Positions 8,245 through 38,245 of a DNA stretch of 64,000 nt are shown here, piece by piece. The stretch lies in the NCBI GenBank assembly GCA_963716985.1, contig OY970323.1:352001-416000 (forward strand), written 5' to 3'. The notes below the pieces were generated by a model, which worked only from the letters and a program-made list of their open reading frames with translations, was not told the origin of the DNA and searched no databases. A program made the translations under genes and the position numbers. Source of the DNA: an uncultured bacterium (GTDB taxonomy: Bacteria > Chlamydiota > Chlamydiia > Chlamydiales > SM23-39). Within the stretch, counting starts at the first letter, position 1, and the number at the start of each line of letters is the position of its first letter.

Positions 8245-8300
8245 AAAGGATACCTTTTTGCACCGGCGTTGCATGGTATCGTCGTTCCTAAAGACACAGG

Positions 8301-8402
8301 CTAGTGCTCTGCCATTCTTTAATTTTAGGATAAATTGACTTGAGTTTATGCCGACCGTTGCCAAACTTATAATCCTAAATTTTAACTATGACAGAGCACT
8401 AG
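8301..8402. mobile_element. MITE family B (~100 bp, CTAG-bounded)
   Basis: CTAGTGCTCTGCCA ... TGACAGAGCACTAG with ~30-bp imperfect inverted ends; a second copy starts at 63954. Confidence 0.8.
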
Positions 8403-32814: not shown

Positions 32815-32951
32815 GGAGTGAGCCTTATCCTGCTTCTGTCTCAGCTGAAATCGCGAGCATTATCGGGGAAATTCTTTTCTATGCGGCGGCAGCGGGCATA
32901 CTTTCATGTCATTATTCTAAAAAATAATCATGACTGCTCATAAAGTTGAGA

Positions 32952-33487
32952 GTGCGACACGAACTTAACCAGATCAAGGAGAAAGGGTTAAGGTGCTTTA
33001 AGAAAGATGAGGGAAGGCCCCTTGCATCAATCAGACCTAGAGGAGTTGCGTATAAAGGGAGAACGTTTACGGGATTTAATCCAGGCGTGAGCAATAAGGC
33101 AAAGAAGAAGATGTACGAGACTATCAGGAATTGGAGATTGCATCTGGCCACTCGGAAAACGTTGGAAGAACTGGCCAGTGAAATCAATCCGGTAGTACGA
33201 GGGTGGATCAATTACTATGGCAGATTTTTCAGATCTGAAATGAGCCCAGTCCTTTATCACATCAATGAGGAATTAACGAGATGGGTAAAAAGGAAGTATA
33301 AAAAGATGAGAGGACACTTTGGAAGAGCCATGAATCTGTTGGGGAAAGTTGCGAAAAACAATCCTCAGCTATATGTGCATTGGAAAATGGTGAAACCTCC
33401 TTGCTGAATAATAAGAGCCGTATGAAACGAGAGTTTCACGTACGGATCTGTGGGAGCCTAGGGGGAAGTTCCCTTGGGCTACCCGAC
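32952..33487 (+). mobile_element. Internally deleted group II intron
   Basis: 5' GTGCGACACG at 32952; domain V GAGCCGTATGAAACGAGAGTTTCACGTACGGATC (33415-33448); domain VI GGGAGCCTAGGGG...CCCTTGGGCTACCCGAC; maturase fragment in between. Confidence 0.85.
33033..33407 (+). pseudogene. Group II intron maturase (domain X) fragment without the RT core
   Basis: INPVVRGWINYYGRF, LTRWVKRKYK, PQLYVHW; no YADD motif. Confidence 0.88.
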
Positions 33488-36389: not shown

Positions 36390-37019
36390 TTACGACCTCT
36401 TTCCCTTGAACGATTTGAATGCGGACTCTAAAGCATTCCATTGATTTTCAAGCTGGGCATTGATGATGCCGGCTTCTGTTTCAATGATACACCCGCCTTT
36501 GAGCACATCGCTTCTTTCAAGAATGGAAAGGCTTTCCACTTCTTTTAAGATTTCTTTAATTCTGGGTTTTTCTTTTTCTAGGATCGCAAGATCTTCCTTA
36601 TTTGCATAGATTTTAATCTTTCTATGTTCTGTTACGGGTTTTAATGACTGGATGACAATGTCCACGATCCTTTCGGGCATCAGCTTGATCTCATTGCCTA
36701 AGATTTTTTTTGCCGCTTTCAGTGCGATCGGAAGGACCTGGTTTTGAAATTCGATTTTGAGGTTTTTGATCTCTTGATCGAGTTGCAGCAGGTGGGCATT
36801 GAAGCGAGACAGCCCCTCGTCAAAACCCTCCTTGGCCTTTCTTTCTTTGAGCTCAAGGCATTCCTTTTCTACTTCTTCTCGATACTTTTGTGCATCTTCT
36901 TGCGCCATTTTCAAGATTTCTTCGGCCGACAAAAGGGTAGAGCATGCGGACGCAGGGATGATGCGATCTTCAGCAGAGAGATGAATTTCCTCTTTCGAAA
37001 AGAGAGTAAAGAACTTCAT
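36390..37019 (-). CDS. sctL: T3SS stator protein SctL
   Basis: MKFFTL start, GGCIIETEAGIINAQL; position upstream of sctR. Confidence 0.92.
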   Translation of the reverse strand: MKFFTLFSKEEIHLSAEDRIIPASACSTLLSAEEILKMAQEDAQKYREEVEKECLELKERKAKEGFDEGLSRFNAHLLQLDQEIKNLKIEFQNQVLPIALKAAKKILGNEIKLMPERIVDIVIQSLKPVTEHRKIKIYANKEDLAILEKEKPRIKEILKEVESLSILERSDVLKGGCIIETEAGIINAQLENQWNALESAFKSFKGKRS

Positions 37020-37379
37020 TAAATTGACATCGCGGAAACCGACAGCCTTGTGCTGTCGGAGGAAGCGATGCTCCTTTGTTAATTGTTAAATATAGGGGTC
37101 TTGCGACCCCTATTAATGCCCGTAAGGGCCTTGTAACGGAACCTTTCGGTTCTCTCCCCTCGGCAATGTTACATAGCGGCCCTATACTCTAATCCGTTTC
37201 GTGCTTACCCTATCGCTTGTCTGCAACTAGAGTTTCGAGAGGGCAGAACTGAGGAAGCATTCTGCCGTCGGTCTTTTTAGCCTCTATATAACGTAGTTCT
37301 CTTGCGAGAACTGAGCCTGGTCAACCAGGGCTTGTTAGTCTTCTTTCAAGCCTCTCCCTTTATGGGAGGGGTGATTGAC
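37020..37379 (-). mobile_element. Non-autonomous IS200/605 (IscB-type) element carrying only an omegaRNA/HEARO-like RNA
   Basis: Minus strand begins GTCAATCACCCC and ends just before ATGAAG; subterminal hairpins at both ends; no TSD; removing it restores a TCA-TGA stop/start overlap. Confidence 0.85.
37070..37379 (-). ncRNA. omegaRNA / HEARO-like structured RNA
   Basis: GTCAATC/GGTTGAC, GGCTTG/CAAGCC, GTTGACCAGGCTCAG, CTACGTT, GGCAGAA-TGCTTCCTCAG-TTCTGCC with pseudoknot partner GAGGGGAG, AACATTGCCGAG, several GNRA hairpins, terminal AAAGGAG. Confidence 0.82.
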
Positions 37380-38245
37380 GAGCCGTCTTCTTGGTTAGTG
37401 TTGATCAGAGACAAAATCTCTTCAATATCGGCGACAATCTTGGAGGCAATTTTCGGTTCTTCTTTTTTTGTGGCGTTGCGAAACAAAAGATTGCCTCGTC
37501 CAATATCCAACCGGTGGCAAATATACCATATCAGATGCACGTGTTGAATGGAAAGAGCTTTTGCAAGGCGAAGAAGCCCCCGTTTGTGGAGCATGAGGCG
37601 CAGCGAGTCTTTCGTTTCGTCCCATTTTTCTAAACCGAGCGGAAGCGAGGTAAAAGACTCTTTAATAGAGCGCTTAGACTTTAAAAATTTGGCCTCGGCT
37701 TTTGTAAGCGAGCCTTCAATTTTTTTGAGGGTGGTTGTGGCGAGTATTTTTTTCATTTCGATCGCCAAATCATAAAGAGCCAGAAGATCGATGAGCTGCA
37801 AGAGCCTGTTTTTGCTAAAGGTAGAAAGGATGTTCAGAGAAGAGGGGGGAAGGTAGTTTTTCGGGAGTATCTCCTTTTCCTCTCCCAAAAGGCTGGAGAG
37901 GAGAATGTGTCGAAAGAATCGCTTGGCCGGCTTTGAGAGTTTTTCAATTCCCGGATGTATGTGAAGAAGAGGGGCAATTTTTTCCACGTAGGATCCGGGC
38001 AGGCTTAAAAGGAAAAGCGAGGCCTCTTTGTTCGAATAACTTTTTAGAGTTGGCAAAAACCAAGAATAGTGTGTTTCCAAAATCAGGGAATCGAAAACAA
38101 AGTCTTGGGGGTCGAAAGAGAGAGGGGAAATCTCGATTTTTTCCAGATCTTCTAAATCCATTTCTGGAAGAAACGCGGCGAGCTCATTTTTTCTCCCTGA
38201 GCGTTCCAACAGTACTTTGAGAAGGGTGAGTGAAGAGAGGTTCAT
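37346..38245 (-). CDS. T3SS-associated protein between sctJ and sctL (CT560/SctK-like)
   Basis: HYSWFLP, LALYDLAIE, LHKRGLLRLAKAL, WYICHRLDIGRG; position in the operon; last ~10 aa come from the inserted element. Confidence 0.8.
   Translation of the reverse strand: MNLSSLTLLKVLLERSGRKNELAAFLPEMDLEDLEKIEISPLSFDPQDFVFDSLILETHYSWFLPTLKSYSNKEASLFLLSLPGSYVEKIAPLLHIHPGIEKLSKPAKRFFRHILLSSLLGEEKEILPKNYLPPSSLNILSTFSKNRLLQLIDLLALYDLAIEMKKILATTTLKKIEGSLTKAEAKFLKSKRSIKESFTSLPLGLEKWDETKDSLRLMLHKRGLLRLAKALSIQHVHLIWYICHRLDIGRGNLLFRNATKKEEPKIASKIVADIEEILSLINTNQEDGSSITPPIKGEA

Follow-up and report, generated by a model that had tools for sequence, protein, structure and literature searches.

A protein-free ISC mini-element carrying an omegaRNA gene at the start codon of sctL in a chlamydial type III secretion operon

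Introduction

ISC transposons, as described by Kapitonov, Makarova & Koonin (2016, PMC4810608), have a 5′-GTCA terminus, insert at N/ATGA targets (here and below the slash marks the point of insertion) and leave no target duplication; since the term ‘start codon’ is absent from the main text of that paper, landing of the elements on gene starts or on stop/start overlaps appears not to be discussed there. According to the preprint of Meers 2023 (10.1101/2023.03.14.532601), the guide of an omegaRNA sits directly 5′ of the element terminus, tnpA is found near only about 1.5% of IscB elements, and the protein-free elements known as PATEs encode omegaRNAs, act with nucleases supplied in trans and share the orientation of the gene upstream. 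Another source (PMC9581776) attributes to Altae-Tran et al. 2021 that standalone omegaRNAs work with IscB, describes a conserved nexus pseudoknot in omegaRNAs and gives NTGA or NTG as target-adjacent motifs (TAMs) in the sister family, IsrB. The present work deals with a 360-nt insert that bears the marks of such elements and lies directly before sctL in a type III secretion system (T3SS) operon, within a stretch of 64,000 nt (‘the window’; positions 352,001 to 416,000 of contig OY970323.1, assembly GCA_963716985.1) from an uncultured member of the Chlamydiales, lineage SM23-39.

The insert is, with very little room for doubt, an internally deleted, protein-free, PATE-like mini-element of an ISC transposon, and the history of its insertion can be read with the same assurance. 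It holds a complete omegaRNA gene on its 5′ side and the subterminal stem-loop of its family at the 3′ end, and it occupies an N/ATGA site, without duplication, in what was formerly the stop/start overlap of two genes. The account as a whole, in which the element would also be retained with the help of its RNA and its end would serve as ribosome-binding site of sctL, seems on balance to be right.

The insert and its empty site

A first-pass annotation, made from the letters of the window and a list of its open reading frames (ORFs), had placed a 360-bp insert in an ATGA overlap between sctL and the CT560-like gene upstream. The boundaries are borne out to the base, and the features at the junction are:

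37020-37379, minus strand: whole protein-free ISC (IscB-type, IS200/IS605) mini-element of subfamily B, 360 nt, with boundaries common to eight other complete copies
36390-37019, minus strand: sctL (FliH family), 209 aa; Pfam PF02108, E 4.7e-20; its start codon adjoins the element
37016-37019, minus strand: ATGA target site and predicted TAM; ATG is the start of sctL and TGA was the stop of the upstream gene before the insertion
37346-37379, minus strand: read-in tail of the upstream 299-aa gene (S-ITPPIKGEA-stop), created by the insertion; the deduced earlier end is ...QEDGS-stop

On the minus strand, the 5′ end of the insert (37379) reads GTCAATCACCCC and the 3′ end (37020) reads ...GCGATGTCAATTTA, after which comes the ATGAAG of sctL. 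With the element in place, the upstream frame runs GGC TC/G TCA..., and its removal gives GGC TCA TGA, in frame, so that SITPPIKGEA has replaced S-stop at the end of the upstream protein. Between the flanks, ...GGCTC and ATGAAG, there is no target duplication, again as had been proposed. No ORF of at least 40 aa begins within the insert on the operon strand according to the ORF list, the sole operon-strand ORF there being that of the upstream 299-aa gene reading in (37346-38245). The product of this gene matched no Pfam family; sctJ lies upstream of the insert and sctR, sctS and sctT downstream, and the sctL protein is 80% identical to that of a same-genus relative.

The sctL locus was taken from 29 relatives (20 of the same family, nine of other families of the order), and none of them has an insert at the junction between the CT560-like gene and sctL, the upstream gene ending no more than 27 nt from the sctL start in all 29. 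An exact ATGA stop/start overlap (upstream stop at +1), i.e. the empty allele that had been predicted, is present in 11 of the 29, and locus L029 is read as a twelfth; the same-genus genome has ...GAGTGAT/ATGAAG, with the stop one base before the ATG. As to the occupied allele, one metagenome contig (X5 record 13, 36827-37076) spans the 3′ junction and another (X2 record 6, 37290-37478) the 5′ junction, both without differences. Because contigs of two separate metagenome studies bridge both junctions, the occupied allele exists outside the assembly, unless the sample concerned is the assembly’s own source, as could be the case for one of them. No contig joining across the insert was found in four soil/peat runs, whose cover, being 2-4x and patchy, is uninformative on absence.

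These comparisons also bear on the view that no insertion took place, i.e. that the insert is an ancestral structured spacer which the relatives have lost. No point in its support was found; all 29 relatives, from 17 families, are without the spacer, the sequence belongs to a dispersed repeat family with fixed ends, and most of it is 89% identical to a part of an IscB transposon of another genus (see below), so that we attach practically no weight to it.

The omegaRNA gene and its guide

The sequences that make up the RNA gene and its surroundings are:

37149-37379, minus strand: omegaRNA core, Rfam HEARO (RF02033), matched from model position 1 to 211 (of 211); score 114.1 bits, gathering score 83, E 8.7e-23 (whole window)
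37112-37148, minus strand: two small hairpins with which the omegaRNA continues 3′ of the Rfam model; similarity to locus L063 runs to nt 268 of the copy, and the hairpins appear in the fold
37251-37256, minus strand: hairpin loop TTCCTC, 5′ half of a nexus-type pseudoknot, which covaries with 37154-37159 across 28 sequences
37154-37159, minus strand: GGGGAG, 3′ half of the pseudoknot, which covaries with 37251-37256
37380-37395, minus strand: ACCAAGAAGACGGCTC, predicted guide of putative use, which adjoins the GTCA terminus on its 5′ side and forms the final 16 nt of the CT560-like gene
37093-37112, minus strand: GC-rich hairpin TAGGGGTC-GCAA-GACCCCTA, followed by TATTTAAC and not by a T run; from the alignment of minis

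HEARO RNAs, the first description of which is said to be that of Weinberg et al. in 2009, are thus represented here by a match to the whole covariance model, above threshold, in agreement with the IscB-type omegaRNA that the first pass had recognized. The model starts at the first base of the element (37379), i.e. at the transposon end, and the flanks differ among all copies. Since no iscB or isrB ORF follows the HEARO sequence in the T3SS copy, nor any other ORF, and the only RRXRR matches of the genome sit at two other loci, the copy is a standalone omegaRNA.

The pseudoknot, suspected from the single sequence, forms six pairs in the T3SS copy, two of them G-U. Across 28 family members, paired cells make up 82.1% (shuffles: 66.7 ± 2.0, with 0 of 500 as high), 32 cells are altered on both sides against 10.4 ± 2.6, and every one of the slid controls scores lower; on this covariation, the predicted loop-to-tail pseudoknot of the T3SS copy is the counterpart of the conserved omegaRNA nexus pseudoknot. 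Compensatory changes are found in 24 of 38 consensus pairs in the same 28 members. Of 44 consensus pairs, 38 are kept in the T3SS copy and 37 in L063, which is the nearest of its IscB-linked relatives and has a HEARO score of 103.1 bits. At its 5′ side the element has a subterminal hairpin, CCCCTCCC-ATAAA-GGGAGAGG. The GC-rich hairpin is present in mini-elements of both subfamilies and missing from the full-length copies.

For the 16-nt predicted guide, the element’s own flank is the sole perfect match in the genome, and the predicted guide of every HEARO copy is likewise simply its own flank. A search of the whole genome gave no second site with up to one mismatch; the best site has two mismatches and is followed by TTTTTT, not ATGA.

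The family in this genome and in relatives

The genome of the window is one 2.07-Mb contig (G000:C1) with 11 HEARO matches, of which nine exceed the cut-off. Nine of the 11 have two ends that can be located, namely two full-length elements (1,628 and 1,632 nt) and seven minis (346-429 nt), and the remaining two are fragments without the 3′ end. The expectation that other copies would have the same boundaries holds for all nine complete copies, each with a 5′ terminus of the GTCA type (GCCA in one, slightly truncated in another) and a 3′ end directly before ATGA. The minis consist of the omegaRNA gene, the short GC hairpin and the last 60-70 nt or so of the full-length element. Two subfamilies can be told apart, with 56-63% identity between the omegaRNA of the T3SS copy and those of the A-type minis: subfamily B is formed by the T3SS copy and by copy c7, which are 79% identical to each other, and both IscB-bearing elements belong to subfamily A. 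Copy c7 likewise keeps 38 of the 44 consensus pairs.

The composition of the T3SS copy can be followed in relatives. Over nt 1-268 the copy shares 89% identity with the omegaRNA region of L063, a full-length IscB element from another genus of the same family, and its nt 316-346 (terminal hairpin) are 100% identical to the end of another full-length IscB element, L056. Of 60 other genomes searched, 10 have HEARO, and none of these 10 is from the same genus; the same-genus relative, whose genome is 99% complete, gave 0 matches. In a plasmid collection the only matches were to Cupriavidus replicons (NZ_CP073678.1, NZ_CP068436.1 and two more), with 71-76% DNA identity over the omegaRNA part; the corresponding unannotated megaplasmid or chromid stretches are, from their similarity, presumably omegaRNAs of related elements, and nothing closer.

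Copy c7 (G000:C1:35378-35758) is itself a mosaic mini, the omegaRNA of which is of the B type (76% identical to L063), while its last 62 nt are 97% identical to an A-type full-length copy; as a pattern of sequence identity, this implies recombination or an exchange of ends between subfamilies.

When a profile of the last 62 nt was used, 22 family ends were found in the genome, 21 of which adjoin ATGA and 19 of which open ORFs of at least 79 aa. Thirteen of the 22 lie outside the nine complete copies and are bare ends, IscB-tail remnants and one reduced element, and only two of the 11 HEARO matches are without an end. Nearly all of the 13 (e.g. G000:C1 positions 748389, 558373, 531335, 1786755 and 1002782) stand directly on ATGA gene starts, and none has a full omegaRNA: that at 1002782 is the reduced element, which keeps both ends, that at 558373 keeps the B-type GC hairpin of the T3SS copy, and some keep scraps of the C-terminal coding region of IscB.

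Helper proteins and retention of the element

The first-pass annotation had suggested that IscB and a transposase could maintain the element in trans, of which only part stands: iscB is present in two genomic copies, but neither is of subfamily B, and no Y1 transposase has matching ends. The two intact IscB genes, one of them at G000:C1:166410-167738, are 442-aa ORFs with RRXRR and HNH domains, both of subfamily A, and an RRXRR search found no IscB of the T3SS copy’s own subfamily in the genome. Columns including D59, E158, H213, H311 and D314, which we presume to be catalytic residues, are invariant among six IscBs and are kept by both resident proteins. The nearest named relatives of these are in Rhabdochlamydiaceae and other metagenome-assembled genomes of Chlamydiota, and identity between the resident proteins and the IscBs found with B-type omegaRNAs in other genomes is 46-48%. 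For the transposase domain Y1_Tnp (PF01797) there are four matches at three loci, namely two identical, intron-split, IS200-like copies and a third locus with a gene broken in two; the end hairpins of all Y1 loci are unlike those of the HEARO family, and no Y1 transposase with ends matching the family was found. In the light of the figure given in the Introduction, a missing matched tnpA is usual for IscB elements.

In the IS200-like pair, at G000:C1 ~755.3-757.9 kb (L014) and 1,970.0-1,972.5 kb (L015), the Y1 gene is split, close to its 5′ end, by a group II intron of 1.9 kb that contains a reverse transcriptase (RT)-maturase ORF of 452 aa, and this intron is found at three further genomic places with 99.8-99.9% identity. 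The third Y1 gene, broken in two frames, lies at G000:C1:55054-55381 (minus strand), just upstream of a uvrB-like gene.

The element would have arrived through the single-strand chemistry of a Y1 transposase (TnpA), with the complement of ATGA as target motif. From GC skew, the origin lies at about 113 kb and the terminus at about 1.21 Mb; the target-bearing strand is on the lagging-strand template at 14 of the 22 ends (the T3SS end included), with 51% of genes co-directional, which is the expected direction and not significant. The element would have no promoter of its own and be transcribed by read-through within the T3SS operon. A promoter scan gave one minus-strand promoter-like site within it (TTAATA-16-TATATT, 37116-37089), with three such sites overall against 1.1 ± 1.0 expected and no evidence of function, and a terminator scan called no minus-strand terminator in it. 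Being transcribed as part of the operon, the omegaRNA would have as guide the final 16-20 nt of the gene upstream. An IscB acting in trans would then be directed to the empty allele, in which ATGAA follows the guide match, and not to the occupied one, in which GTCAA follows; because the TAM is present only in the former, only element-free copies would be cut. Repair of chromosome copies cut in this way would copy the element back, a mode of retention, or homing, shown elsewhere for the family. That the omegaRNA of the T3SS copy is still used by a resident IscB is possible, if somewhat less likely than not.

An opposite reading is that of an inert relic: a single insertion, the helpers of which are gone, with an RNA that is a passive part of the operon sequence and only the last 60 nt or so of any consequence, as the leader of sctL. 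In its favour are the two IscB genes, both of the other subfamily, the lack of a TnpA with matching ends, the series of decay stages, with full-length elements, minis and finally bare ends (of the 22 ends, 13 are outside complete copies) and the absence of HEARO matches from the 99% complete same-genus genome. It sits less easily with the state of the RNA, which in the T3SS copy is as well paired as that of the IscB-linked L063 (38 versus 37 of 44) and has a higher Rfam score (114.1 versus 103.1), and with the two B-type copies, which are only 79% identical to each other and nevertheless both keep 38 of 44 pairs, although their masters may already have diverged (c7 has an A-type end). On this evidence a relic is somewhat improbable, yet it is the main rival reading.

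The first-pass annotation had also offered the element as an RNA-guided regulator transcribed within the T3SS mRNA. In such a role the omegaRNA, now domesticated, would lead an IscB to a second site and there affect gene expression. This did not hold up. The guide has no second site at up to one mismatch, the best site, with two, being followed by TTTTTT; each copy’s guide is simply its own flank; and the resident IscBs keep the invariant columns and so do not look nuclease-dead. Only a general precedent speaks for it, since TnpB-derived RNA-guided transcription factors reportedly exist (10.1101/2023.11.30.569447), and such a regulator is highly improbable here.

Landing on start codons and ATGA overlaps

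The four-nucleotide target of the family is a start codon plus one base. Among the nine complete copies, eight adjoin the ATG of a same-strand ORF of 115-742 aa, rpsF included, and the ninth lies 4 nt before tRNA-Glu. An ATGA stop/start overlap was the target in three of the nine (the T3SS copy, c4 and the full-length c3), since in each of them the upstream frame, as it runs on into the element, is the one that gives the overlap, and five copies are at other start codons; the proposed bias of an ATGA TAM toward translationally coupled junctions is borne out by these counts. For c4 the empty site is preserved in a same-genus genome as the uninterrupted overlap ...TTCAAACA/ATGAAAG, and for c3 the overlap is seen in three relatives.

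In other genomes, 14 ends of relatives were located, 12 of which adjoin ATGA; five of these 12 open ORFs of at least 273 aa, four are still open at the edge of the locus and three are short. Some of the relatives’ copies precede ORFs that read as rplB, nusA and mdh from their N-termini. Among 80 IscB loci of many phyla, 78 could be evaluated, and in 30 of these an ORF of at least 100 aa begins at the ATGA that first follows the iscB stop; the count is crude, in that ends are misplaced if ATGA falls inside a hairpin and several copies per genome are included. The start-opening loci include those of Thiomargarita, Parabeggiatoa, Nitrospiraceae, Desulfatirhabdium, Planctomycetota and Oligoflexus.

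The genome has 21,538 ATGA sites, of which, on crude ORF calls, at most 942 are start-like and 2,613 intergenic. Eight of nine copies at ORF starts correspond to P ~2e-4 against the 26.5% share of starts among non-disruptive sites, in a hand calculation with rough gene calls and with selection outside the model; copies within one genome and genomes within one family are not independent either. The literature searched held no description of start-codon landing or of an element end that bears a ribosome-binding site, a weak negative since many subscription papers and the supplements were outside it. The landing on start codons of a family with a GGAG-carrying end is a newer aspect than the T3SS copy itself.

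The element end and translation of sctL

The 3′ end of the element, which is the left end of the transposon, contains:

37071-37077, minus strand: AAAGGAG, remnant of the last iscB codons and candidate Shine-Dalgarno sequence of sctL
37027-37071, minus strand: subterminal imperfect stem-loop of the transposon left end; outer stem GCATCGC/GCGATGT, inner hairpin CCGACAGC-ACAAG-GCTGTCGG

The AAAGGAG had at first been taken for an orphan ribosome-binding site of the element, with no ORF after it. Its origin is another one, since it aligns with ...AAAAGGAGCAGCGCTTCCTCCCACCCCTAA (KRSSASSHP-stop) of the full-length copies, in which the iscB stop lies in the loop of the terminal hairpin; what may hold of the earlier idea is that it now serves sctL as ribosome-binding site. 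The hairpin noticed directly before ATGAAG is the subterminal stem-loop. The 3′ 156 nt of the element have a folding energy of -58.7 kcal/mol (z = -5.34), which none of 200 shuffles equals, and the inner hairpin of the T3SS copy, CCGACAGC/GCTGTCGG, is altered on both sides with respect to CCCACCCC/GGGATGGG in other copies.

GGAG is kept, within a span of 25 nt, in 17 of 21 family ends, with two more just outside that span, and it is retained whichever frame iscB uses there. It is found just 5′ of the outer stem, the 3′ foot of which is 7-11 nt from the ATG (7 nt in the T3SS copy). In most of the 21 minimum-energy folds it is unpaired beside the stem; in the T3SS copy the last of its Gs forms a G-U pair at the stem foot. 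Shine-Dalgarno-like motifs occur at -18 to -5 of 278 of 725 genes of the genome, against 77 of 725 in a control interval (-64 to -51), a 3.5-fold enrichment. Having lost the ATGA coupling, sctL would now be translated from the element end, with the stem-loop bringing AAAGGAG near its ATG. Whether the end does serve as ribosome-binding site of sctL is, from these sequence features, an evenly balanced matter.

In the T3SS copy only, the 3′ arm of the terminal stem (window 37019-37030, minus strand) has GCGATG instead of GCGCTG, matching the change in the 5′ arm. This change creates the three-codon frame ATG TCA ATT TAA, the stop of which overlaps the ATG of sctL (TAATG).

Other ends meet the start codon in different ways. 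Of six full-length elements examined, three have an iscB that stops at the TGA of the target ATGA and is overlapped there by the start of the host gene; in these cases (L050, L060 and L056, of G013 and G043) the IscB frame runs through the terminal stem-loop to that TGA. The Nitrospiraceae copies have a plain end, TAAGGAGTTCTC/ATGAA. Five IscB elements of one uncultured Nitrospiraceae genome (L111, L116, L117, L120 and L122) end in ...CGCGCCTAAGGAGTTCTC/ATGAA, i.e. with a canonical Shine-Dalgarno sequence at normal spacing, after which comes an ORF of 167-457 aa.

It is thus possible, and no more than tentatively proposed, that the left end of the ISC clade acts as a start-codon adaptor, in that the N/ATGA target favours starts and overlaps and the end supplies what the displaced gene needs for its translation. 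In the chlamydial copies, the transposase-binding stem-loop would keep GGAG close to the ATG; for those of Nitrospiraceae, the plain TAAGGAGTTCTC/ATGAA would supply the translation signal; and where the iscB stop is the TGA of ATGA (the three of six elements), the host gene would be coupled to iscB. Such an adaptor would account for three observations: the presence of elements before essential genes of compact genomes, the survival of bare ends after the remainder of the element has gone, and the agreement between translation start signals and the guide/TAM logic of IscB.

Several points weigh against the account given here. As to the proteins, trans loading is uncertain because the resident IscBs are of subfamily A and the B-linked IscBs only 46-48% identical to them, and no mobilizing enzyme is evident because the end hairpins of the Y1 elements are unlike those of the HEARO family. 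As to translation, sctL may need no Shine-Dalgarno sequence, since about 60% of the genes of the genome have no such motif, and the conservation of GGAG could instead reflect recognition by the transposase or simple inheritance. The GC hairpin within the element could hinder transcription into sctL, and minis with such a terminator-like hairpin before essential genes would have to escape polarity. Finally, part of the enrichment at start codons would be expected from purifying selection alone.

Other repeats in the window and genome

A group II intron 3′ remnant lies at 32946-33487 of the window (plus strand), with a 153-aa ORF that has only the maturase (GIIM) domain (E 2e-19) and, after it, a match to domain V/VI of Rfam Intron_gpII (33413-33487, 59.9 bits); the two ORFs upstream gave no RT domain. 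Self-BLAST of a 12-kb stretch gave two families of short dispersed repeats (e.g. G000:C1 360300-360402, window 8300-8402), one of ~103 nt with about 30 near-identical copies and the other of ~124 nt, in both orientations, at about 12 loci. Neither family is related to ISC elements.

Comparison with known systems

The arrangement at the sctL start has a likeness in phage T4 gene 38, the type case of a Shine-Dalgarno sequence brought to the start codon by an intervening hairpin. In the modelled folds the order would be the same, i.e. GGAG, a stable stem-loop, 7-11 unpaired nt and AUG, and it is carried here by a transposon end, not by a gene. If the adaptor reading is true, the transposon ends of this clade would be portable translation-initiation modules, and ATGA-type TAMs would tie RNA-guided nucleases to gene starts.

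At a more general level, the locus presents an RNA-guided transposon living in an essential, translationally coupled operon of a small genome of the obligate-intracellular type, with neither gene broken. As a natural standalone omegaRNA with T3SS coding sequence as its predicted guide, it lends itself to tests of the retention (homing) model and of trans-loading between IscB subfamilies. It also accounts, in annotation, for the odd structured spacers of ~350 nt before genes in chlamydia-like genomes.

As for the HEARO family (RF02033), the match is to the full-length model, including the conserved 3′ tail of the pseudoknot, and the half that is missing here is the HNH endonuclease ‘ORF’. With the ISC elements of PMC4810608, as far as they are described there (ISC1-1_MA of Microcystis aeruginosa, ISC2-1_HM and ISC2-1_MS), the T3SS copy shares the 5′-GTCA terminus, the ATGA target, the absence of duplication and the subterminal imperfect hairpins; those elements mostly have no transposase gene, as here, and their full-length copies encode IscB with RRXRR and HNH domains. 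Unlike them, the T3SS copy has lost iscB and has a chlamydia-like host. With PATE-like elements it has in common the combination of transposon ends with a guide-RNA gene, no protein, an expected dependence on nuclease and transposase in trans and the orientation of the upstream gene; in contrast to these, the nearest nuclease is of the other subfamily, there is no matching TnpA and the minis have an added GC hairpin. The element thus belongs to a known kind, that of the ISC elements with N/ATGA targets and of the standalone omegaRNAs or PATEs (Kapitonov 2016; Meers 2023; Hirano 2022).

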